A DNA stretch of 63,448 nt, counting the filler, from Collodictyon triciliatum (lineage: Eukaryota), in the NCBI GenBank assembly GCA_043381765.1. It is 7 parts of 7 records of this genome, joined end to end, with 100 filler letters (N's around TTAATTAATTAA, not from the genome) between each part and the next. Parts side by side here need not be neighbours in the genome. Positions count along the whole stretch, not along the records: positions 22,815 to 34,110 come from JBHJMP010002438.1; 6 more parts are not named here. One strand, 5' to 3'. The notes below the pieces were generated by a model. It searched no databases. It was not told where the DNA came from and saw only the letters and a list, made by a program, of their open reading frames with translations. Within the stretch, counting starts at the first letter, position 1. The number at the start of each line of letters is the position of its first letter. Shown here one piece after another: positions 3,101 to 36,590 of this stretch. The position numbers were made by a program, and so were the translations under genes.

Positions 3101-6100
3101 TTATAATCATGATTCTTTGATGCCAATCCCAATGACCTCAGATACATAAACGCCACCTGTACAGAAAATAATTTAACATTTTTACTTTGTTCGAATTAAG
3201 AGAGAATAAGTCATCGTTAAGATTAATTATTCATATTGAAAATAATATCCAATTTTATTTCATTATTGGATAGAGCTCAAACAGAGAATAACAATGTACC
3301 ATATATATATAGATAGAAATGTTAATACTTGAGAGTGCTTGGATGTCTGGGAGAGGTTTGAAGACGAATCCAAGAAGTCAGATATTATATTATGAGAAAA
3401 TCGACCAAGGACAAAAAAACAAACAGTCGTCAATGTTATAAAAAGCCCAATAATGTAAGTCCCTATTTGAAGGAGATGTACAACTTCTAACTTTGCACGG
3501 TCTCTGCGTTTAATCCAGTTTGACTGTGACCTCTGTTTCGGACCTACAGCGTACGATTGATGTGAAGTCGTTTCATTATCTTTACTCTTTTCAACACCCT
3601 TTGGGTCATCCAAAGCGTCTGCTTGCGTGTAATATTCCTTAGCCGACTCTTTGTCGTTTTTTACCACTTCGACAAATTGCCCATAACTCCTTAGAAGAAC
3701 TCGTGATTCGGGATAAGAAATCAATAGTTTTTGATAAGAATCTTCGCATTTTTTCTCATTTCGTACAATATCTGAAGCCAATTGAGGAAGCTCGACAACA
3801 AATTGCTCGTCTGTGGAATCTAATACCTATTTCAACGATTTAAATTTCATAAATTGATATTGTAGGACACACAGTATATGGTTATATCAGGTATCAAATC
3901 CTCAAGAAATGATTTGCAATATCGTGTTATGAATGTAAGATATCTCAGCCCAGGTAGGTTGATTTTGAAGATCTCACCCTTTCCCAAAATGTTTGAATCA
4001 GCTTGCGTGTTTTGGAGTAGTATGTTTTGGCGCGGTTATAATTGCTCTGAAAATCAACATAATGCATAACATCCATAAGACCTCCTCCTCCAAGCTCTTG
4101 TGAGTGATTACTTTTTGTCCTTCATTTCCGCATCATAACGTACGAGCCATAAATTAACATTTATCAAGGTTAATGACGGTTGTATGAATTATCATGTATA
4201 GTGTATTGTTTGTATGATTTCCCCTCACTTCAAAGTAAAAAGAAACGTAAAAATAAAGGGAATGCTTCGAAACGGTTAATTTCATTTTCTCAAATAAAAC
4301 CGCTCACCAATCAACCTCTGTGACATAAATCAAGAAACGAGTATCCACCATCAGTTCGAGTCTTCTCAGTGCACGAATAGGTTTGAGAGTCAACGGATAA
4401 TTCTTTTTAACAGTAGATATAAAAATTACGTAAGACTGGAGTATATATTGTGATTGGGGAAATAGTTTAATTCCAATCAAGTACAATCGGTGGGCATATC
4501 CAACTCGTGCTGGATGACTTTTTATAAGATTTCTGGGGGGAAAATTAAAAGGATTAGAAATTTAAATTTTATTTGGTGCCGTATGTACTTATTTATCCGC
4601 ATTCTGAAGGTATGCATAAGATATTACCTGATAGCTATTTCAACATCGGATTCAAAGTAAAAGGGATTGGATTCGGCATTGACGACTGTATCTAAGGAAG
4701 AACCCGCTAGAGTTGATTCTGGGTACATTTTTACTACCCTTTCTAGTAACCATATGTACCTCAATTCTACAGTATTAAAATTTTTTTAGTGATAATTACT
4801 TGAGTTTGTAATATATTTTCGATCGTTAACCAAAGACACAATAATTTTTTGATATACTGGATAATTTGTAGCCCATGTAAGCCGCAGGTGCAGACAATGA
4901 AAAGAATAATATTGGAACGAATTTAAGGTTTGTGTCATTCACTGCGTAACATATTGCCGTACATACGGAGGCAAAGAAAAATACAGAAAATGATGCCGAT
5001 GTCTATTTTAGATTTGTGTGATCAATTTAGCAGGAAAATGATAGTTAATTAAACTTTTTGTTAATAAAGCTATTTTTTTTCTAGTTAGAAAAGAAAATAT
5101 CATACTATATGATTGAGCCTTTCGGAGTAGTAAGGCTGAAAAGTTATGGAGGCAATAAGGAAAATGGAGGAGCAGATAACCAGGCAGATAATACGAATAG
5201 TCTGTATAAATATTATATTTGATATTAATACTAGTTTTGATGTTTCATAAATATTGTAATAATATTGTTTCATATAATTTTTTTAAAATAAATAAAGGAT
5301 ACAATAATACAATAAGTATCAATTCAGACTCCAAGATTTATCACTCACCATATATCTTTCCAATATGACCTCAGAGAAAACCAGGATTAACTTTGTAACA
5401 AGAAGTAAAAAGTCCAGTCTTCCATGGTGGCGAGCTGTAATATCTTTAGATTTAATATCCCCTTCGAAGTATCTAATTGAAGATTGGTTCAGAGAGAAAT
5501 TTATGCTTTTCCATATTATTTTTATTAATTTTTTTTTGAATTCATCAATTTTATGATATCTTGAACTTTAAAGAATATCGCAATTACACAAGAGATGTCA
5601 TCATCGCCAGAGGAATTAAACATATTAGTCCAAGGAGAGAAAGAGCATAAAGGATTCCATTAGGCCAACTGAAACATTCGATAGTGGTATAAGCACTTAA
5701 ATAAGGTCCTGTTGTTCCGCTGTATGAATAGTTTACATTTAATGTGAAACTTCTTGAAATCCATTGAAATTTAAATTTCTTTTTCATGGATGAATGATAG
5801 GCATAAATATCATGAAAATTTAATGATTTATCTCTGTTAAGGATAATACTATAAAGTAATGAGGCAATTATTTGATTACTCATTTAACGCTACATTATGT
5901 TAAATGAAATGATATCACGTACGAATAAACGCAATCCACGCTGACCAGAAACAAACGAACAAGAGGGATGAACAGGAAGGTAAATAAAGTTCCAGCAATC
6001 AACCTCAGCATTCTTATTGGCCAGACACTTGTAATAACAGATGACTATGATTAAGAGATTAAGTCATTCATCCATACAAATTACTTGAAAAAATGAATCT

Positions 6101-21418: not shown

Positions 21419-22550
21419 TTATTCCTCAGATAATAGTATATCACACGAATGCTCTATACCTTTAACCACAAAACGACACAAAGGTTCAATATGGGTTTGC
21501 ATATGGCATTCCTTCATGATTTTACTCCATAGAACATGGAACGACTGTGGATCATCAAATCCTTTCGGGGTAATTATGGGAGGCAGTTGATTACTTTGTA
21601 GCACATAGTTTCCTATCAACCACGAAACAGCTAAATTCTTCTCTGCAAAAGGTGCAATAGATAGAAGATTGAAGTAGGCACGAGATGCAAGGATGACGAC
21701 ATCTTCCAGAGATGATGCCTTCGACTGTTTAGCTTCATTATTTAACCACTCCCAATAAATCTCCATCAGAGCAGGAACTTCATGCGGAGTTGCTTGCACG
21801 AGCGCCCACTGCGACTTTGTGGAGGGCCGAAGTAATGCCTGCTGCTCTGATGGTTTACATTCTTGCACAAGCATCGGACGATACAGCCCAGTCTTGAAAG
21901 CTGCCGTTTGTCGTGCACATATCATGTGTAAGCGAGTTAAGTGGGTGTGTGATAAAGTCAAGTCTGATATTCGAGACCATGATTGTATTTGCCGAACTGC
22001 AGCCAAACAATCATTATAGAGATGAGTACTTTCGGTTGATACCTTGGGTGTCACCAGATGTGGGTATGATTCTATCAGAAAAGTAGTTTTTGCAAACATA
22101 TCGGTAGTCTTTTGCACGTTCTGGTGTGTAAGAGGAATCCTCTTGTTCTGCAACCTGTGCACTTTTTCTTTCAGTTGGCCAATACCCCCAGGAAAGATAC
22201 TGGTGACTGTAAAACATGACTGAGCTTATTAAATGCTAAATACTTGAATAAAAATAAAATTGTTCTTAATCTCCATCCGATATTCTATACTTTAAGAAAA
22301 CGGTGTACATAGATATGCAAGAGGACAAAAGAAATTGACGCAATCACCGTTTTCATTTGGGTTTGAATCAAAAAGGCGAGTCTTTTGTAAGAAGTATATC
22401 CCTGCATGAAGGTCATCAATAGCCTCATCGTATTTTTCAACGGGGAAATCATCAATATTGATGTATTTCTGAAAAAAAAGGAACAATTATTTTTTTTTTA
22501 AAAAAAAACTCTTGTTCTGAATGTCTATGTTCATATTTCTATCAGGCTAA
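21419..22550 (-). CDS. Fic/Fido-domain protein (FICD/HYPE-like) with degenerate catalytic motif; 5' truncated
   Basis: LTLSHTHLTRLH, TGLYR, PHEVPALMEIYWEWLN and ASRAYFNLLSIAPFAEKNLAVSWLIGNYVLQSNQLPP follow the Fic core. An upstream exon is TPR-like (EKYDEAIDDL). Confidence 0.75.
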
Positions 22551-22714: not shown

Positions 22715-22814
22715 NNNNNNNNNNNNNNNNNNNNNNNNNNNNNNNNNNNNNNNNNNNNTTAATTAATTAANNNNNNNNNNNNNNNNNNNNNNNNNNNNNN
22801 NNNNNNNNNNNNNN
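22715..22814. other. Artificial contig linker
   Basis: N44-TTAATTAATTAA-N44. Confidence 0.97.
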
Positions 22815-22918
22815 CCCAATCCCAATCCCAATCCCAATCCCAATCCCAATCCCAATCCCAATCCCAATCCCAATCCCAATCCCAATCCCAATCCCAATCC
22901 CAATCCCAATCCCAATCC
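22815..22918 (+). repeat. (CCCAAT)n hexamer repeat, read as (Gln-Ser)n in the giant ORF
   Basis: CAA TCC codons are in the same stop-free frame as the ATG at 23105. Confidence 0.85.
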
Positions 22919-25900
22919 TCGTTTTATTATCCTCTTAATTCCACTGAAATTCTCCTCTCAAAATCTGTACAAACATACACCAAGACACGTAGTCTGACAT
23001 TTTCAACATCAATCTCGGAAAAGCAGACTTCGCCAGGCCACAGCCAAGGATTTTCAGAACGTATAATTTCGGAGACGCACGATGGTTTCTTAGAGAGTTC
23101 AAATATGCACTCCTCTTACACCAAAAGTTCAGAACGAAGTCGGTCCAGATCGGGTACTCCTCAAAACCTGAGAACTCCATCTATACACTCTCTCTCGTGG
23201 GCACAAAGGTCAACTGATGACTCTCCTGTATTTTCCCACGTGTCTTCAAAACATCATACCCGGTCAGTGCGGATATCGAAAAAAATGGAATCTAGTTCCA
23301 TGGATGAAAATCTTACCACACCCATAAACAGCCTGTATCTGACTCAATCGTCATATGGAATCGTTTCGAAACAAGCATCTTCTAATCATGGAACTAGGAT
23401 TCAGTCAACAAGTACTCATCTCAAGCAAACACCTAGCATTAAAAATACCAATGTAAAAGCAAGTGAAGCATCAAACTTCTCAAAATCAAATCCATTTAAC
23501 ACACTCTATTCAACAAAGATGTCCAAAACAATAACCGAATCTCGAGTTGGGAGCCAGAGTGTGAGTGATGTTAGGCGGACACATTTGAAATCCGATAGCC
23601 CTTCCATTCGCAAGAATACAGCAGTAACGAAAACGCGCTCTCCTATCTCAGAATCAAAATTACATTCGCTCTCAAAGAGCCATTCTCGTAGCCCTTCCAA
23701 CTCGCAAACTATCCCAAAAACACAGGATTGTCCTGGTAATACCACACGCAACATATGTGGTACTTGCAGTCTAGCTGAAGGACTCATTATACTGGAAACG
23801 AAAGGATTAAATAGTCAAACAAACATTGAAACCCACATAAACACAAATATTCACGGGCAACGATTCTCAAAATTCGTTCATACTATGCCAATATCCCCTA
23901 GTTGGGATTTAGTCGATTCGATAGGGAATATCAACCTACATCACAGCCAAAGTAATGACACATTACCGATGGAATCTATTTTCGGAGCACTGCAATCTGT
24001 CTTTATATACTCTAACAATCCGATTTTATCTATATTTGTGTGGGGAACAAACTTCTTCAACTCAACAAAGACTCAAGGGAAAATAGAGTTTGCTTTTCTG
24101 GAGGCACCAGAAATATATGGCTCATGCATATACGTTGGCTTGAAACCTTGCAAGGTTGAAGTTAACATACCTTCACAGTTGTTTTTTTCAGACATCAAGA
24201 AACTCACTGCTTCAATTCGACATGAATCGATATCCAAGACTTTATCTGAAGTGGAATTAAGGTTAATAACTACTCAATCGTCAAGTAATGTGATGGAATT
24301 CATCGGCGCATACATTCCTCAAGCTCCGGTATTTATTGGAGAAGAGTGTGTAATATTAATCAAACTAATGAGATATAACATCAATCCTCAAGCATACAAC
24401 GTGATTGACTTTTCACTAACTTTCGATTCTGACAATTTCCAATTCCTCCGATTTGAATCAGTAAATCCAAAATATACATTCACATTGAGCAACCAAAATG
24501 GAACATTAAACTCGGTTTGGCTGTCGGGGTCATCGAATCTATCCCCAAATAATCAGGTTGATGCAGAACTTACCTCCATGGTTTTTTTGTCCAAGAACAA
24601 CTCAAAGCCCGGAAACTTTAGTTTTGCATTAAATGTAAAGAGCATACTAGATAACACCTACGAACGTGTGGTGACAAATAGCCCTGGATATTTTTATGGA
24701 GCCAGTACAAATATCGGGGAAGGATTTATAATAACTAAATATGATATCCCTGTGGCTTATTTTATTACTAGTACGTATGACAATATAGCTAATATGAATC
24801 CTGTGTCTCCAAACTCGACGTATGTTGATTTCTATGTTTACCAAATTACAGAGCGCACAGGATTGTCCGAAATTACTGCCGATATTGATTGTATAATTGG
24901 GGATACCACTGTTCTTGGCTGTAGATTTTTATTGAGTTCAGATATCATCAACGCCCAAAGAGAAGAAAATGGTCTTCATATCCTAAGTGCAAAATATAAG
25001 TCTGCAACAACAAACATTATTGTGTGGCAACCAGTGTTTCCGTTGCTCATTCGAGTAATAGATTCTATACTAGAAGGAATATGCTGTGTCGATGATGCAA
25101 CTTCAAAAAATCCAGGTCCACTCCCAAACTTGTATCAATCTACCAGAGCAAGTGTTTTATGTAATTTTACCAATGGAATAAATTCATCGGTTACTATGGA
25201 CATAGCCAACTTTGTTAAAATTGAAGCATCCCGCCAAGATATAGTTTCTATCCAAAATAATTTGATCACTGGGCTGTCTACTGGAAAGAGCGATTTGTTC
25301 ATCAGAGGTCTCCCTTGTTTGACTCAAACCATTACGGTTTCATCAAGTACAGTTACTATTTTGAAATTTGAGTCTATGGCTATAGCATCATGGGGCTCGG
25401 ACCAGGTCTTCATTCCTCGAACCTCATCATCCATCATTAGTAACTATATATTCAACGGCTTCTTTGAACAAACATTTAAACATGAGGACCAGATTGGCAC
25501 CTTGGTAGCTTTTATCACATTTTCTGATGGACAGCGTTATGCAGTAACCAAAGAAATGGGCATAACATTTGAGTCAAAGTCTCCATATGTCCATATTGAA
25601 CAAGAACAAAACCAAATAACTGTGAAAGAGACAACATGTGCCCTTCATGTTATTGCACTATGGAGATATGGAGGATATATCGTATCAAAATCTCAAACGG
25701 TTATAAGAAGCTTATTACCTGCACCAACAAGGATTCAAGTGACGGTAAGTCAGACTCGCATAACCCGCTCTGGGGATATGGCCTCGACTGTTGGAATACC
25801 TACAGAATCTATTCTCAGTGTCAAGGTTTTTTTTGACGATGGAAGTTCTAATGACTATACCCTTGACAATCGAGTAAACATCGATGATAGCAGCCTAGAC

Positions 25901-28900
25901 CCCTTGAATATATTGGTGTGTAAGCATATCGACACAGGACTACAAACAGAGAGAAAAGTGCTTATGGCCAGTGGAAACGGGAACGGTATTGCTAATCTTG
26001 TTATCTCTCTAATACTTCATCCTGAAATTCCCAGTGTAACCACGCAAATACATGTTGTTACCTTCTCTCAATTGGTTGTAACCTTCCGTCCATACCCACC
26101 CTATCCTGGTTCGGACAGCATAGTAAAAAATACTTTGCAATTGCTACCGTGCGGAAGTGTATATGAAAAGAGCACCATACATCTAAGTGCAGTTCTTTCT
26201 GATAATAGCGACATAGATATTACTTACAATACAAATACAGCCTTTTCAATACCAGCCTTGAGTGCAAATAAGATATCCATCACCGATCGCAATGTCATTT
26301 ATCCCAACGGAAAAACTGTCGGAAATGCAGTCGTTCTTGCTTCGTATATGACACAAAGAACTTCTGGTTTCGTGACAATAAAACAGTCTGAACTCGAAAT
26401 AGTAAGCTTGTCTTTAGTATACCCAAGTATCGCAAAAGGCATCACAAAATCCTCTCCCGGTACTGTCGCACTAAAAGCCGTCTTAAAAAATGGAAACGTG
26501 GTCACCCAATCATCTCTTAGTAAAGGAGCAGTACTTTTTTCATCAAGCGCTCCAGATAATCTATGGATAAATTCCACCACTGGTGAAACAATCATTCTTG
26601 ATGGATACTGGTCTAGTATTACAATCGCTGCAACGACTTGCACAGGAATCTCGGCCACTGTAAACACTTTGCCCGTTGTTCTACCTGCTGTAGGGGATGT
26701 CGGGCTATTACTCCCTTCAGGTACCCAGTTGTGGAGCTCGACCATACAGCAGACACAAGATATTAATGTACTTTTCAATTCTGGAGGAAAAAATCTGAAA
26801 GGATTTGATATTAGTATTACCTATGATTATTACCTGGTAAGTTATGCTGGATATAAAACAGGAAATAATTGGTCTGGAGGACTTTTGGATGTGAATGCAG
26901 ACGATTCATCTGGAGTTATTCGTATTGTTGGGGTAATCAGTCCTTCATCAACTGTTGTGGGTGAATCGATTCACTTAATTAGCATAAAGATGAAAGCACA
27001 GTTGAACGGGTTCAGCAAAATCACTGGTTTCATCAATAAACTGTCGTCAGTTGATTATCCTGGTATCGTGAGGGATATAGGACTACCTATCGAGCCGTAT
27101 TCATCAAGACAATTTGTATCTGGGGCGATTTATGTGAGTATTGGTTCATCATTCAGTACATCTCCGAGAGGTTCAGCGTCCATAGGAGCTGGCAACACGG
27201 TCTTCCGTGAACAGAAAAATGAGACCATTTCAAGGACAAATATGCCGTCCCTTGCATCTAACATTACAGAAGACCATTCATTGAACAATACACAGAAAGG
27301 GACTAAAATACAAAGAAATAATGCACAGCCATTATCTTGCGTTGATAACAGTGCAAGCATTCGAGGAGATGTTGACGGGGATTGTGAATTTTCAATCAAA
27401 GATGTTGTTTATGGTGTTCACTATCTATCAAAGATTTCTGGGTTTACCATACCCCCTGAAAGATTGGCTATGGCTGACAGTGATAAGAATGGGATAATTC
27501 AAGCATCAGATATGGTATATTTGATACGCATTATATCTGGAAAGCTTAGATTTTTTGAACTGCTTGTACAATCTCCATCAAAGCAATCACCAGCGTTTGG
27601 GGTATCAATTGCATCTTATGATTGGACGGGTAAACAAGTCACTTCAAAGATGGGGTATGTTGTTTACCTTTTTACATTTTTGAACAAGAACATGTCTGTT
27701 ACAATAGGCTCTGCACGAAAAACAACAGCGACTGGGGTATCTATGAACGCACTACCAGTTCAAGATAGTAGCCTTGGAAATATATTCAAAGTTTCTGGGT
27801 TTATGGGTACAATCGAAACGTCAGTAGGTGTGTCAATAAAACAAATTACTTACACTGATGGACTCTCAACACAAAGTGATCGCCAGTACACATTCAACAT
27901 AGCTAACGACGGGGTGATGAAACCAATATCGTACATTTACCCACAATATGACGGGTCGTTACCGCCCGTTATGATATCGGCATTCTTCAATCGAGACGGA
28001 GACGCTGTTCGGATTATCTTTGATAAAGAAACTAATCGAGGAAATTTAGCAACAAATTTTGACTGTGGTAACCTTTTCGAAAATATGACCAGTTTTCGAT
28101 GTAAATGGGTCTCGGAATCTCAAGTAGACGTAAACTCGGCATGTTCACCCCAGGTCCAAGTGGGTTCTCAACTTATATTGGTGAAGAATACCATCAAGTC
28201 GAAAATATCATCCGATTCATCTGTATTTTCTAGTGGGACCATTTCAATTGATATGGGTGACCTTGACATTTACTTTAGTGCCGTAATTAGCGGTCCACAA
28301 TCAATTGGCGTATGCTCTCCTTTGGAGCTAGATACCTACCAAACTACATTGAGTGGGCTTGCATGTACCAATTTAACATACATATGGTCATTTTATACAT
28401 CCAGACCGATCGAAGTGTCTGATAGAGAAAAAGTCCAGCAAGTCTTGAGTAGCTCGAAGGATTCGCTATATCTGGGAGAATTTCTCCCACCAGAAATGAC
28501 TTATATATTTACTGTAAAAATAACCACAGCAGTTGGGGTTGCAAGTGTAGCTCGGTATACAACCACAAAGTATATAGACGCATTACCTATTGTTGGTATT
28601 AATGGACCTCCTCAAATGAACATATACCCATCTACTGCATTTTCAATTGGTGGTTACGCTTCTATACCTTATTGCGTCAATTCAACCAAATTGAACTTCT
28701 TATGGTCAGGAGTGCAAGGTCCACCGATAGAATTTAATTCCATAACAAGAACGACCAGAAACACACTTGTGGCAGCGTATTCGCTGAAACCATTTGAGAC
28801 TTATGTAATTCAATTTCAAGCTTGCTTCGTTTCAACTTCCCAAAGTTTGTGTAACAACGCTTCTTTGGTCGTTAATGTCCTTTCGTCAGGACTACGGGCA

Positions 28901-31900
28901 AGTATAAGTGGTGGTAGCTACATGTCCATAGGAACCGTCGGGGCGTATTCCGTGGATGCGTCAGACTCCCTAAATCTTGACTTAAAGAACCAGGGCGATA
29001 ATCTCGTTCGGTATTACCAGTGGTCTTGCACTGAGCAAGGGACTTCGTCTCCATGCAAGTTACGGATAAATGAAAACAAAGAAGAGGTACTCAACATCCC
29101 TAACGTAGCCACATTTGATATCATTCAATCAAAGGAGAAGTTCTTAAAGCCTGGTATATATACTATGAAGCTCGTATTCTATACTGATGATTCTCGGTAT
29201 TCCTCGGTTTCTACGTCAAAGACTGTAGAGGTCGTTGAAGGCTCGCCGCCACAGTTATTCATAACTTCTCTGTCTAAAACTCGTCCATCCCCTTCCAAGC
29301 CACTCAATATCCAAGTCAGTGGAAGACCAAGCTCTATGGGCAACATCATAAGCTATTTTTGGGTAGTTACTGAGGGTGCTGCTTCCATGACCAACTTGGG
29401 TATCGATGAATATGCTGTTCGTTCCCCGCGTTTTACAATTCCTTCAGGGTCTCTTGCACAAAATTCTGTTTATAATTTCCGAGTTACAGGTATTGAAAAT
29501 GGAACCAATGCTGTAGGCGTATCTGAAATCAGATTCCAGACTGATTTATTGCCTTATGGAGGTGATTTCGATTGCCCAGATCAAGTGAACTTTATGGAAC
29601 AAAACACTGTTATAGCCAGGGGATGGAAAACGACGGTCGAAAATCTTCCCCTAAGCTACTCGCTTGGGTACAAACTAACTGTTGATTCATTTGTTCAATA
29701 CATATCTGGATACTCTTTGAGCCCAAAAAGGACTATTGTTTTACCTCAAGGTGGGATGGACAGTCCGTATCTAGGCTCTGGGAGACTGGAGCTAATTCTA
29801 TTTATCAGAGATAATACTGGGAACCAAGTGTCATATTCATCGTACATCGATGTCAAATCTATTCAATTCTCGAGTGACGATGAAAGAGCCGAAAAGGTAG
29901 CGGATTATGTAAGAAAAGATATGTCCAATCTCATGGATATCGGGGACTACGAAGCTGTTGGGCAATATTCAATAGGATCTATCGGATTGTTGAATCAGAT
30001 GTCTTTATCGCGCTCTGGTGCTGTTGTCTCAAAGGATGAGCATTTACTGAACTCAACTCATGTTTCAAAAGTAAACATGACATTCCCTTTATCACACAAC
30101 AAAGGAGAAAATAATAACTCTATACGTTCATCAAAATTCCAAAGTTTTTGTGATTCGGTCACACAAAGAAAAGGGGCATTGTTGAGATACGAGATATTCA
30201 AGATTTTGCAATCCTGTAACTCGAATCAGAAATTCTACATAGCTGAAGACACGGATTCCAACATTAAAAAGTTTTCCTTCCTATTCCAAACTGACTGTCT
30301 TAGCTATAACTTGATTGAAGAAGGAGCTTCTTACTTTGAGTCACTCTCAAGTAAGTTCTCTCCATATTTTCTTGTTGATTTCTTGTTGCTTTCTTATTGT
30401 TCTCTCCTCGTCCTCATAGAATCATAATTTACGTTTTGTTACTTTTTTTCTGAAATCTATGTTAAATACATTGTTTTTCAATTAGAAAACTCGCGTGATA
30501 CATCAGTCATGCTCACTACAGGAGATAGTATTATGGATGCGTTTTCGTATATGTATAAATATGTGGTAGCAACCTACAAAAATGCAACTCTTGTGAACTC
30601 TATCGTTATGACCAAGGCCAGTGAAAGCGGGAAGGCAATCGGAAGGGCTGGAATGATAGGTTCTATGTGTGGTTCTTCATATCTATCACGAGCTTCATCT
30701 TCGATAACAGCCTCTTATGATGATGGAATACTACCTGTGGTTGTGTCAACGAACTGGATATGTCAAGACTTTGTTAATTTGAATGTTACTCTACCAACAA
30801 GTTCTGCACATACCAGCGTTTACCTGAAAAAATCCTCCGACATGAATTCTTTGGATCATAATGGTATCTTTGTGCATTTGACCCATCTCAACCCCAAATC
30901 TTTCGCTTTCAACCAACCAAATGTATCCACAGGGGTAATTAGTATTAGTACGGAATCATACGATGCTGCTTATTCTTCGGTCGGAACGAAAAATCCTAAC
31001 TTGGGCCAACTATTTGAGCATGCAAATATCCACCTTGTCAGGTTCAGCGAGGATGGCAGGTCTTATTCAAGAAATGACGCGTCCATTCCACATACCCGTT
31101 TTGCGATTGGTACTACAAGTGTTGCACATAACAAAGAGCATCCTCGAAGATATATGAACGCCAATATTGATTTCACGCGCAAAAACCAGCAAAGGATGGA
31201 GCCTCGTTGCTTCCAAACAAATAACCCACTAAATGGTGCTTGGGGGTCTGAAAACTGTATTCGACTTGCATTCGACGCTCAAAGTTTGGATTGCTCTTGC
31301 GCGCTCTCCAATAATATCTCGTCCTCTTCATATGGAGGTGTCAACGAATTTATCATACTGACAACCACTGCTACTACTGCGCCTACCGAATCCAGGTCAC
31401 ATAGCCCATCACGTACACACACACATGCCATAGCGACCCACAGCAGAAGCTCAAGTGCTGTTCATACTCAAGACGCTGACCAAAACACTGATAGTGGGGC
31501 TGGTTCCGACTCGCAAATAGCCATTCTCATCGGTTCGGTTGTGGGGGGAGTCATTGGTGTTTTAGGTATTTGTTTCTGCGCATTTTTTCTCTTGCGTCGC
31601 CGAAAAGTGAACAAAAATGCACCCGAACAAGGACAATCACACGTTTCAAAAAAGAATTACGGTTCTACCAGAAAAGAAAACAGCTCTCTGATAGGAATGT
31701 TTGGTAGAAATGGAAAAAATAAATCAATTGACCATCCGAAACAAAACGCGACAAATTCCACGGATGGCAGTGGTACGGAAAACATTACAAAGGACAATAG
31801 CAACCAAGATAGGCAAGCAAGGTCCGATAAGTTACTTGGTAACAATTTTCTATCAACAGCTTCCTCGATTTCTTCGCATACACCGCGCGATGACTCAAAA

Positions 31901-33865
31901 CCGAAAGGTCTGCTGGGTCGAATATTTTCAGGTGGTTGGAGGAATTATTTTATACGAACTCGTTCAAATGTACATCGAGTATACTTATCTGCTCACTCAA
32001 AATTAGGCAGTTCTGATGTCATATTGAGCTCTGTTGCGGATGAGGCAGCGTCAGAAGGACTTGAAATTAATGAACCAAGTGGGTCGTATCCACCTAAACC
32101 GAAGCGTCCATCACACACGAATTTTAAACGTGGCGCCAATTCTTCCTTGAGCCCGAATTCGAACCATCAATTAATTAACTCGAGGGAGAGCAGTCAGAGG
32201 AAAAATGACAATTCAGGAAAAGGCTCATCCCAATCTCCATCCCGTTGGCGTGGATTGAAAGCTTTGCGGGTTTTTCGCTCATTTTTACCATCAGAAGGGT
32301 CTACTCATTCGCTATCATCTGCAAGTAGTAGTCCAACAAATCTAGCCAAAGTGAACAATCAATCTCAAGAGGTAGTCCGAGCCAAAGCAGCCCAAAAATC
32401 ACACAAAAACCGTCCATATCCCGCACCTCCAACTCTACCCCCAGAAATACGGAATCATACTGGATTATCTGTTCCCTCTCTTCCTCCGCTGGATTCTTTA
32501 CCGGAGGAGATTCCCATACCACACTCAGAAATTCAATCCCATGTCCAGCCACAAAGCCAAAACATGCTCAACTCCCACTCAGATGCGATTCCTTCTCCAA
32601 AGTCTCCTGCGCGCTTAGAAGAGCAAGATGAGCCTAGAGAACCACAGAAAGAAACCCCAGTCCAAAACAATCATATTAATAACGGCTCTCTCCATGTGCG
32701 CCCAACTTTGGCTCCAAAGAAGTTCGAACCTGCAAAACTACAGGCCTTGAACACGCCTGGGAAACTCGTGAGTAATGTCATATATGACGAACGTGATAAG
32801 AAACTGCATGCAAAATCTGAGTTAGCCCCAGTCCAACCAAAAGTTTTGCCGCATATGTCGGCCTCACACAAAGTGCGTCTCCCGTCCTTAAACCAAGACC
32901 CCCATCCACCTTCGGTAGTTCATCACGCACAGCAACTACCGACCATTCCTGACTCAGTCTCTGCTCCACCTTTCATCCCAGAGTCCAACGAATCATCAGC
33001 GTTGAAACCTATTCATCAACCACCTCCTTTGCCGCCATCGATGATTCACTCGCTTAATAGAACACCGCTACCATCTCGCCCTACAACTTCACTCGCACCT
33101 TCACCCAACCGTACTCCGTCCCCTCATCCAAGAGCGTCACCTTTGTCACACCCATCAGTTCAAACCCCTATACACCATGATTCATCGCACCAAACTCAAA
33201 CTCCACCTCCCAAGTCATCCTTCGTTTCACCTCCAAATGGGAGTGCGATACATGCTCAACCAATCCCACATGAGATACCAAACGGAATCCACACATCCCA
33301 AGCATCGAAAATGAACCAAGAAGCTGTCGCGCCTGCCACCCCCGTTCCGAAGAAGACAAATCATGCTTCCTCCTTAATTCCCAGAATGCAGGAATCGCAT
33401 GTGAGTCCAACTCCAAAGACAGTGTCAGTTACAACTCCGACAAAACTGGAGCCACATCCTACAGTCCACCCCAGAACAGCAGCCTCCTCCCACATGAATT
33501 CTCCGTCTACCCCAGTAACCCTTCATACACAACCCGTCAGTACACAAAACAAGCCCCAACCAGAGTCCGCGAAGAGGCCATCCCCATCACCAACTGCCCC
33601 TCAAAAGCCGTCCTCCTCCTCCATATCTTCAAAAGTTGGTAGCACTGTTCCCCATTCAAATGCAAGGCTGGCACAACAAACAAGCGTCTCAGCGCTTCCT
33701 ATGCCAATGCCTCTTCCCGCAGCAAACCACCCAAACCAGCCTGTTTTGAAGCCTAAGTTAACTCCCCTGACGAGGCCATCGCAACTCTCATCGAATCCGT
33801 CCCATGCTGCACTAAGAGCACCCGCGATGCTTCCACGCGACTTGAATCGGCCACCAAAGTCCTAG
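22815..33865 (+). CDS. Giant (>3600 aa, 5'-truncated) single-pass surface protein: Ser/Thr stalk, TMEM132-like cohesin/Ig modules, cohesin, dockerin, REJ, GPS, TM, Pro-rich tail
   Basis: Two exons (22815-30350, 30486-33865) joined in phase by a GTAAGT..TTAG intron. TMEM132-like VWQPVFPLLIRVIDSILEGI and LYQSTRASVLCNF (~25020-25170). Cohesin-like INVLFNSGGKNLKGFDISITYD (~26760). Dockerin GDVDGDCEFSIKDV...ADSDKNGIIQASDMVYL (27365-27544). REJ-like AVISGP, ASISGG, LPYGG (~28270-29850). GPS C..W...C..C-S-C (~31208-31300). TM IAILIGSVVGGVIGVLGICFCAFFLL-RRRK (~31517-31605). Confidence 0.88.
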
Positions 33866-35261: not shown

Positions 35262-36590
35262 CTTTTTTTTTAATATACATACTTTAAAGTTCAAGAAGGT
35301 TTACAAACCGAGAGTTAAAAAGAGTACACATGACAGAGGGCAAACGCGAGTGGGGGAAGACACTACCGTGGAGAGGCTAGCACCGAAAAGAAATCAGTGA
35401 TAGCGAGTTGGTCAAGTGGATGGCTATATTGGTTGATTGGTTGCGTGGGTAGCAGGGGGTTGGATATGCTGTGGGAGATATCTTACGACACATTCCCACA
35501 TCTCTCTTCGCTTGAGGTCAGAGTAACATGGAATGCGGGCGTCTTTAAGCAGGCTGTTCAGGAAGCTGTATTGCACGAGGCTTTCAACAATGGATACATT
35601 GATTTCTCGTTCGGGTGAATCATTAGAGCGAGAGAATGCACGCACACTCCATAGGGCCCACAGCTTATATTCCTTCGTGACTGTCCAGAGTATTCTAGAG
35701 TCGTGGGTCATTTGGTATTGTGCGCCAAACAGGATGTCTGACGCGCTGAGTCGGTTGGGAGCATAATCAAGCTCAGAGAGCATCTTGTGGGTAGACTCTG
35801 TCACTTTTTGAGCAAGAGAGCACTTCACAAATGCGTGTTCGATAGAGTTATCTCCACTATGGCACATGGTGCATTCTGGAGAGGTCGTTGCTGCATGGAC
35901 TACACGCGCACACTTATCCACAGCTCTCTGTTGGAGATATTGAGCAGTAGGGCGCGGTGTTTCGGAAGTAGCTGAGATATACGGACTTGCTTCCAGCTTT
36001 TGACTATCGGCGGGTCTATAATGTCTATAGTTTCGGCCCACCGACTCATCTTCTCCGGTTTGTAGGGATTCGGATTGATGACTATATATCCAAACAGCTT
36101 GGAGTACGCCATGGCCATCGAGAATTGCGGAGAATCAGGCGTAATGGACCGCCTTTGGTTTTTCAGGCAAAAGAAAAATGGTGACAGCGCTCCGTATGAG
36201 ATGGGGCGAAGTGAGCGCCATTCTCCTTTGTTGTTCAGGACGGCTGTGGTTGGGGTTGCATTCGAGGAGTGAGATATCGTTGCATTTTTCGACGGTGCGA
36301 AGCTCCCATCCTTTTGGAAAGCGACTTGTTGAAGAAAGAAGGAACTGCTTCAATCACCTGAAGCGAACATCTTAGCAGCAATTTAGACGAAGGAATGACC
36401 GAAGGTAATAGATAAGGGAAATGGTCTCGCAGCAACTATCTTGTGGAAGAAGGGGATAAGTAAATTCGACAATTTTTGATAGGAATTCGACGTTTTCAGT
36501 AGGAATGCTCCTATTGCACGGAAGCAAGTGGGCACTAAACCAAGGAAACCAGTCCTAGTGTTCGTTTGTTTCCAAAGGGAGTACATAGAC
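35262..36590 (-). mobile_element. Degenerate 5'-truncated non-LTR retrotransposon (L1/Tx1-like ORF2 C-terminus with zf-RVT)
   Basis: CCHC knuckle CTMCHSGDNSIEHAFVKC, then LSASDILFG and LWALWSVR, typical of the region after the RT domain; frameshifts upstream; poly(A) at ~35263-35271. Confidence 0.8.

Follow-up and report, generated by a model that had tools for sequence, protein, structure and literature searches.

A giant spliced protein of Collodictyon triciliatum joining a TMEM132-like unit, a cohesin-dockerin pair and a REJ-GAIN module

We analyzed a 63,448-nucleotide stretch of Collodictyon triciliatum DNA (the window), in which unrelated contigs of the source genome GCA_043381765.1 (hereafter G000), C2436, C2437, and C2438 among them, are strung together via 100-base linkers, and found that the 11,296-base contig C2438 (record JBHJMP010002438.1) is filled by one spliced gene (22817-33865, + strand) encoding at least 3637 residues. 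The single transcribed chain runs from a QS/Ser-Thr stalk through a TMEM132-like unit (a conserved region, a first cohesin, and about six Ig domains), a second cohesin, a dockerin, a REJ module, and a GAIN domain to one transmembrane helix and a 757-residue tail. Our preferred reading, which we hold with moderate confidence, is that this protein, one of a protist multigene family, is a type I surface receptor and would serve as a long, force-bearing adhesion tether with a calcium-dependent clasp formed in cis.

The initial annotation of this DNA had proposed one chain of more than 3600 residues, with two open reading frames (ORFs) joined by a splice at 30351-30485, and both proposals were borne out. 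The ORFs are in frame on the + strand; the first (22763-30427) begins with N, and the second covers 30428-33865. The intron (30351..30485, +) is 135 nt long with GT..AG ends, and it is skipped exactly in one contig each from runs X1 and X2, so that the two ORFs are joined in one transcript. An X1 contig covering 29398-31951 starts near the end of REJ, crosses GAIN and the helix, and stops within the tail. X1 and X2 come from one study and no contig of theirs covers the whole gene; that they are RNA is our guess, favored by loose contig ends that presumably derive from a template-switch cDNA adapter, and gene parts uncovered by these runs were given no evidential weight. Exon 1 encodes 2511 residues from 22817 to 30350 and is open from the contig start, and exon 2 runs from 30486 to the stop at 33865, contributing 1125 residues from 30488, which with one codon spanning the joint gives the total of 3637. 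Because C2438 begins inside the (QS)n repeat, the start codon and signal peptide are not visible, the 5' end of the gene lying beyond the assembly linker (22715..22814; 100 N between unrelated contigs). A transcript of Diphylleia rotans, whose genus lies within CRuMs, encodes a 2743-residue protein (P0003) that aligned to exon 1 at 28% over 2373 columns and continued into exon 2, with the exon joint aligning gap-free; by this comparison P0003 has the same chain of domains as the C2438 protein. Two lake metatranscriptomes (X3 and X4) were dropped as evidence of habitat, as each covers 3 of 30 bins in short pieces.

Pfam searches of the protein itself gave a single match over the cut-off, to REJ (PF02010, E 4e-34), and none to TMEM132 or GPS. 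The weak domains (cohesin, GPS, and TMEM132) were nevertheless accepted because homologues and folds carry them: P0003 matches Cohesin (1e-12), GPS (9e-11), and the TMEM132 fourth domain (1e-9), and its REJ also passes. All features of the gene that follow lie on the + strand. The (QS)n repeat (22817..22921), which paralogues share, leads into a Ser/Thr-rich stalk (22922..23722; Ser and Thr make up 38% of the first 300 residues) that is probably O-glycosylated; both were read from the translation. At the position of the TMEM132 'conserved region' is a Cys motif followed by a beta domain (23723..24289), recognized from the beta strands of an AlphaFold model (AF2) and from the alignment with P0003 and the paralogues; this is the weakest TMEM132 part, as the Pfam TMEM132 second domain was matched by 1 of the 41 members of alignment A3. 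Cohesin 1 (24290..24745, residues 492-643) occupies the position of the TMEM132 cohesin-like domain, and in a structure comparison (VIA-align, Z 13.7, rmsd 2.6, 134 aligned) the top 14 rows were all cohesins. It is followed by about six bacterial-Ig-like domains (24746..26686), a count taken from the strand pattern, the first three of which correspond to TMEM132 domains 4-6; the Pfam profiles for these three domains were matched by 21, 10, and 8 of the 41 A3 members, respectively. The model of residues 300-1290 (991 residues, 41 sequences) is all beta with a mean pLDDT (predicted local distance difference test) of 86. Fold matches of the Ig array were to bacterial Ig tandems (LigA, SbsC, and intimin), in keeping with the repeated Ig-like units first reported, and Foldseek on the whole 991-residue model gave generic multi-Ig hits only, with TM-scores <0.2. 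The proposal of TMEM132-like motifs thus stands on domain order, the Pfam matches of homologues, and the cohesin 1 and Ig folds, but not on any Pfam TMEM132 match in the protein itself.

Where a single cohesin-like domain had been annotated, we found two. Cohesin 2 (26675..27151) scored under the cut-off for Pfam Cohesin (E 0.047), and is separated by a long linker (27125..27331) from a type I-like dockerin with two calcium-loop motifs (27332..27571). This dockerin, already proposed in the annotation, fell under the cut-off for Dockerin_1 (E 0.002), and the only PDB sequence matches of the protein, four in number (E 0.07-0.6), were all to dockerins. The dockerin is followed by a conserved domain, also present in bacterial copies, and a pre-REJ domain (27572..28261), both recognized by sequence alignment only. 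In a complex model that gave cohesin 2 and the dockerin a chain each and included two calcium ions, the pair scored 0.83 vs 0.00 for the best of three controls, with runs agreeing in at least 97% of contacts and a partner pLDDT of at least 76; the mark used was reached by 51/78 solved vs 2/108 mismatched microbial pairs, and for eukaryotes by 39/65 vs 2/126.

The REJ module (28262..29986; PF02010 match 28673-29971), built of PKD/FnIII-type repeats, confirmed the REJ-like repeats of the annotation. It is followed by the helical start of GAIN subdomain A at the end of exon 1 (29987..30350, from the P0003 alignment) and the remainder of GAIN (30486..31363). The model of exon 2 is weak (mean pLDDT 51, seven sequences); its top seven Foldseek hits were all to GAIN (best E 7e-5, four with E <0.001). 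The annotated GPS motif held up in part: the GAIN fold and the Cys/Trp frame of the GPS region (31199-31363) are present, but the H-L-T/S site is replaced and followed by an insertion, and self-cleavage is therefore improbable in this copy. In latrophilin, mutation of the H-L-T/S residues impairs cleavage according to the accessible text of PMC3321182, and the accessible text of PMC13062082 gives the self-cleaving GAIN motif as H-X-S/T. We conclude, from the residues at the site, that the C2438 protein probably does not self-cleave at its GPS. One transmembrane helix followed by basic residues (31520..31591; hydropathy, with a TM_ErbB1-like match under the cut-off) and a Pro/Ser-rich cytoplasmic tail of 757 residues plus the stop codon (31592..33865) agree with the single helix and ~750-residue tail first described. 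The cDNA-type contigs cover the tail, and the coding length changes listed among them sum to whole codons. Comparison of X1, X2, and the genome shows much more variation in the tail than in the ectodomain, and in length the tail exceeds those of paralogues (74-210 residues) several-fold.

The C2438 protein is not a one-off and belongs to a large family. A cohesin-dockerin query found 56 places on 30 contigs of G000, a lower bound in which alleles are counted together, and REJ and Pfam GPS queries matched 15 and 13 contigs, respectively. Four contigs (C1011, C3396, C2501, and C1427) carry the cassette, REJ, GAIN, and one helix in the same layout as the C2438 gene; C3869 is cut within GAIN, C5321 spans the dockerin to the helix, and C2850, C2001, and C7290 have REJ-GAIN with no cassette directly upstream. 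Paralogue ORFs break at the same point in GAIN as does the C2438 gene, consistent with an intron common to them, and one paralogue (C1197) has a signal-peptide-like start, judged by eye. On contig C505 (L034-L035) at least six TIG/IPT repeats are inserted between the cassette and REJ. Among the contigs read, with four further GPS matches left out, the GPS is canonical (H-L-T-S/T-F) in seven (C5321, C1039, C2850, C1441, C11316, C9778, and C6224) as well as in P0003, C5321 combining it with a dockerin, REJ, and one helix; it is altered in the C2438 gene and in C1011, C3396, C2501, and C1427. The genome also has an expansion of PKD_channel (PF08016) at 53 places, 32 of them near-full-domain without stops and mostly in open frames of 800-900 residues.

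A search with residues 549-1588, from the TMEM132-cohesin-dockerin part (the cassette), against 1.84 billion representatives identified 250 proteins at E ≤0.001. Among the best 150, P0003 alone also has REJ or GAIN, and a Pfam scan of 16 found four cadherin giants, seven proteins with Dicty_CTDC repeats, and one with 7tm_2; some homologues are already labeled TMEM132 fourth-domain proteins in UniRef. Five of 20 proteins checked carry a source name, and by these the cassette is present in choanoflagellates (Codosiga and Barroeca), a haptophyte (Prymnesium parvum), and a green alga (Cymbomonas, two proteins). It is also present in genomes of the myxobacterial phylum, where we found it in 10 of 301 sampled. 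The GTDB genomes gave 19 cassette loci, most of them titled Myxococcota or Deltaproteobacteria, one of which lies on a 9.3-Mb chromosome that also bears rpoB over the cut-off, and the Pfam TMEM132 fourth domain passed in 2 of 5 cassette-bearing bacterial genomes vs 0 of 14 control genomes. Cohesin-dockerin order is kept in the bacterial, algal, and choanoflagellate copies. From these sequences, the TMEM132-cohesin-dockerin part is a mobile cassette common to cadherin-type giants, algae, and myxobacteria; since it is so widely shared, a narrow range applies only to its combination with REJ-GAIN. A word-indexed protein search returned P0003 only, for both cassette and REJ-GAIN queries, whereas a profile gave 10 proteins; the word-indexed search lacks the sensitivity needed to establish that the architecture is limited to the C. 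triciliatum/Diphylleia lineage. Leads in the ESM Atlas (best score 0.86, recognition below the mark) were bacterial Big_2/dockerin/cohesin clusters only. A giant-virus source for the homologues without a name was dropped, as the named homologues are bacterial or eukaryotic. Viral contigs yielded no loci that were kept. We also set aside L020 (JAIYDG010000432.1, titled Bacteroidetes) as a bacterial copy: this 3.4-kb contig nearly matches the Diphylleia protein and is probably a eukaryotic contaminant. Three loci (L012, L013, and L018) are on records titled Enterobacteriaceae, a title that is probably a placeholder, since G004, the genome holding L013, was sampled within the phylum of a Myxococcota genome. 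Myxobacterial-type open frames of more than 6,300 residues carry the cassette in L014 (1-18943) and L015 (1-18928), and another cassette-bearing frame (G267:C183) reaches 11,115 residues. In Codosiga hollandica the cassette is joined to 7tm_2 with no GPS match (P0028), and this protein may possibly be an adhesion GPCR (G-protein-coupled receptor) with the clasp in place of GAIN.

In an LG+C20 tree of 30 cassettes (a quick search, with 6 of 36 rows dropped), the bacterial, G000/Diphylleia, algal, and choanoflagellate/cadherin copies each fell on one side of a branch, with support of 97 for the bacteria and with G000/Diphylleia nearest to them. The species tree would ask G000/Diphylleia to group with the choanoflagellate/cadherin copies, and constraining them to do so was rejected (p-AU, approximately unbiased test, 0.011), in a quick tree with long branches and for a group chosen after the trees were seen. 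Nesting of the G000/Diphylleia clade within bacteria (99.8/99) was found with LG+F+G4 only and is model-dependent, and we claim no separate transfer or direction from it; one transfer between bacteria and eukaryotes would be enough for the tree, with neither its direction nor the number of transfers fixed.

The linker between cohesin 2 and the dockerin differs between groups of the cassette, which we defined on a FastTree tree of 155 cassettes plus five further G000 loci, after removal of duplicates and of rows that contained X or had little upstream sequence. In the bacterial clade (half of the rows being GTDB loci) it is short and acidic, with a median of 24 residues and a dibasic site in 0/28. 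Elsewhere it is long and basic, with dibasic sites in 16/16 of the algal clade and 94/98 of the rest (110/114 together), and in the Diphylleia copy (1/1), as compared with 0-8% in control windows. The motif R-x-K/R-R occurs in 78/98 linkers of the non-algal eukaryote-type clade, and two separate basic sites flank a spacer in 13/16 algal and 86/98 other copies. We take these basic motifs to be of the furin/kexin or site-1-protease type. G000 has a site-1-protease-like fragment (L076) and six bacterial-like subtilases (L070-L075), at least five of them in one open frame.

These observations suggest how the protein may work. A signal peptide like that of paralogue C1197 would send the ectodomain out of the cell, where the stalk and Ig domains could reach ligands on substrate, prey, or another cell. 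In the presence of calcium, cohesin 2 would clasp the dockerin of its own chain, so that load is carried across the linker, with REJ-GAIN forming a membrane-proximal pedestal and the long disordered tail connecting to the cytoskeleton or to signaling. The ligand, cell location, cleavage, and force in this scheme are things we infer, as is a mechanosensing role. Given the convertase-type sites in most other eukaryotic linkers, the clasp there would, like GAIN, keep the two halves of a cleaved protein attached. The C2438 copy has no clear cleavage site in either linker or GPS; most likely it is a structural protein that stays uncleaved, in a family with other members that self-cleave.

Several observations weigh against this reading. 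Cohesin-dockerin complexes have solved structures, so the score of the pair model may reflect structures already known to the program, and it shows likeness rather than binding; moreover, only cohesin 2 was modeled, and from the model the partner of the dockerin could be either cohesin, of its own or of another molecule. The linker rows are related and partly repeats within one protein, so their counts are not independent events, and most 'eukaryote-type' rows are without a named source. Within the G000 family only 2 of 16 linkers are dibasic. The C2438 linker itself has no such site, leaving furin cleavage of this copy unsupported, and a search of the incomplete G000 genome gave no furin/kexin P domain. 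A scan of the tail for the cytoplasmic motifs of TMEM132, PP1 (RVxF) and WIRS, found no RVxF and one WIRS-like match of a kind common by chance; RVxF, a short motif, occurs in 2/7 tails (P0003 and C1011).

The dockerin might instead clasp in trans, binding the cohesin of another molecule on the same or a facing cell, so that the proteins form chains, a coat, or cell contacts and cohesin 1 offers a free second docking site. Having been computed with separate chains, the pair model fits trans as well as cis, there are two cohesins for one dockerin, some 30 paralogues could supply specificity, and the cadherin-type giants hold repeated cassettes. The adjacency of cohesin 2 and dockerin is fixed in every lineage, though, which is simpler if neighbors stay together, as is the flanking of the spacer by paired basic sites in 99/114 other eukaryote-type copies, and we regard binding in trans as unlikely. 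Also compatible with the tether reading, but in our view doubtful, is a 'split' polycystin-1, in which this REJ-GAIN receptor with no channel of its own would gate a separate PKD2/TRP-type channel. As in polycystin-1, REJ is immediately followed by GAIN and then the membrane, and the 53 PKD_channel matches in G000 could supply a partner; PF08016 also takes in other TRP-type channels, so these need not be PKD2, the link between the two families is conjectural, and the protein has a single helix and no match to PLAT, PKD_channel, or a seven-helix domain. Although the cohesin folds are genuine and both calcium loops of the dockerin are present, a cellulosome-like scaffold anchoring dockerin-bearing enzymes at the cell surface is very improbable, because all 26 matches to a dockerin-only query of G000 adjoin a cohesin match (in a search that missed the known contig-edge dockerin of C5321, and of an incomplete genome), Pfam Dockerin_1 had no matches in G000, and the family members scanned have no enzyme domain.

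For the wider cassette we put forward a tentative history, to which we give somewhat less than even chances: the TMEM132 ectodomain would be the cut-down front of an older cassette, common to myxobacteria and probably derived from them, that ended in cohesin-dockerin, and convertase sites between the pair in eukaryotes would have made a calcium-dependent, force-rated clasp that keeps a cleaved receptor in one piece. Cadherins of the choanoflagellate type, surface proteins of algae, and the C2438 protist family would use this clasp as a release joint alongside GAIN, and in some members of the protist family the clasp and the GPS would form two successive release points. That this protein would bear on the origin of TMEM132 was part of the annotation, and the TMEM132-like unit does occur outside animals, in algae and myxobacteria. 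Its presence with a dockerin in Diphylleia-like protists, algae, and bacterial chromosomes is a wider range than the animal lineage and suggests that the unit passed between bacteria and eukaryotes. Cohesin-dockerin bonds rank with the strongest known, and a cleavable self-clasp in eukaryotic receptors would, if true, be a new way to set the force of ectodomain release. The accessible text of PMC6030884 dates the TMEM132 architecture to early holozoans and gives vertebrate dockerin homologues as undetectable, which leaves the partner of the TMEM132 cohesin open there; the dockerin beside the TMEM132-like unit is a natural candidate. The supplement text of that paper mentions neither dockerin, bacteria, Monosiga, furin, nor REJ, and its figures may show choanoflagellate dockerins. 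In literature short of most subscription journals we found no paper on TMEM132-like units in bacteria or on cleavage between cohesin and dockerin in eukaryotes.

Elsewhere in the window, a neighboring contig has a 268-residue ORF (21419-22225, - strand) with a weak Fic/DOC match under the cut-off (E 5e-4), and there is a TmcB TPR-repeat match at 3263-3826 (-; E 2e-12), an exon of an Integrator subunit 3 gene at 61391-61927 (+; E 1e-10), and a weak zf-RVT match at 35424-36134 (-), perhaps a retroelement remnant.

As the initial annotation anticipated, the literature and database searches we ran found no described protein of the same architecture. The C2438 protein resembles TMEM132 and the TMEM132-like units of coherin, lefftyrin, and hedgling (as given in the accessible text of PMC6030884) in having the conserved region, cohesin, and tandem bacterial-Ig domains in the same order on a single-pass chain. 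It differs from TMEM132 in about three extra Ig domains, a second cohesin, dockerin, REJ, and GAIN, in its place outside Holozoa, and in having ~1900 more ectodomain residues, the TMEM132 helix coming after the third BIG domain; unlike the cadherins coherin, lefftyrin, and hedgling, it has no cadherin repeats, and P0001, P0002, and P0003 had no cadherin match. Cellulosomal and non-cellulosomal cohesin-dockerin pairs share its folds, calcium loops, and modeled interface, but here both partners are on one eukaryotic membrane chain with no enzymes attached. Sea urchin REJ1 is single-pass, as is the C2438 protein. With polycystin-1, PKDREJ, and sea urchin REJ it shares a REJ module that leads into GAIN/GPS immediately ahead of the first helix (accessible parts of PMC4700764 and PMC3321182), and it differs from polycystin-1, with its PLAT, 11 helices, and channel domain, in its one helix, degenerate GPS, and other N-terminal modules. 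From the same partial sources, REJ with GPS is found outside animals in Ectocarpus (PMC4700764) and GAIN in Dictyostelium and Tetrahymena (PMC3321182); GAIN is also reported in bacteria in the accessible part of 10.64898/2026.05.12.724683, and that of PMC12484212 adds nothing further on eukaryotes. Like adhesion GPCRs, whose cleaved halves stay bound, the C2438 protein sets adhesion modules on GAIN, but it has no seven-helix domain. The uncharacterized myxobacterial giants with Dicty_CTDC (P0011, P0015-17, P0021-24; L011-L029) have every part of the unit, starting with the conserved region and ending with the domain after the dockerin, and differ in a short acidic linker, Cys-rich repeats in place of REJ-GAIN, and bacterial export signals (by eye). 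By defining features the C2438 protein is therefore not a TMEM132, coherin, polycystin-1, or adhesion GPCR, and it combines modules of each.

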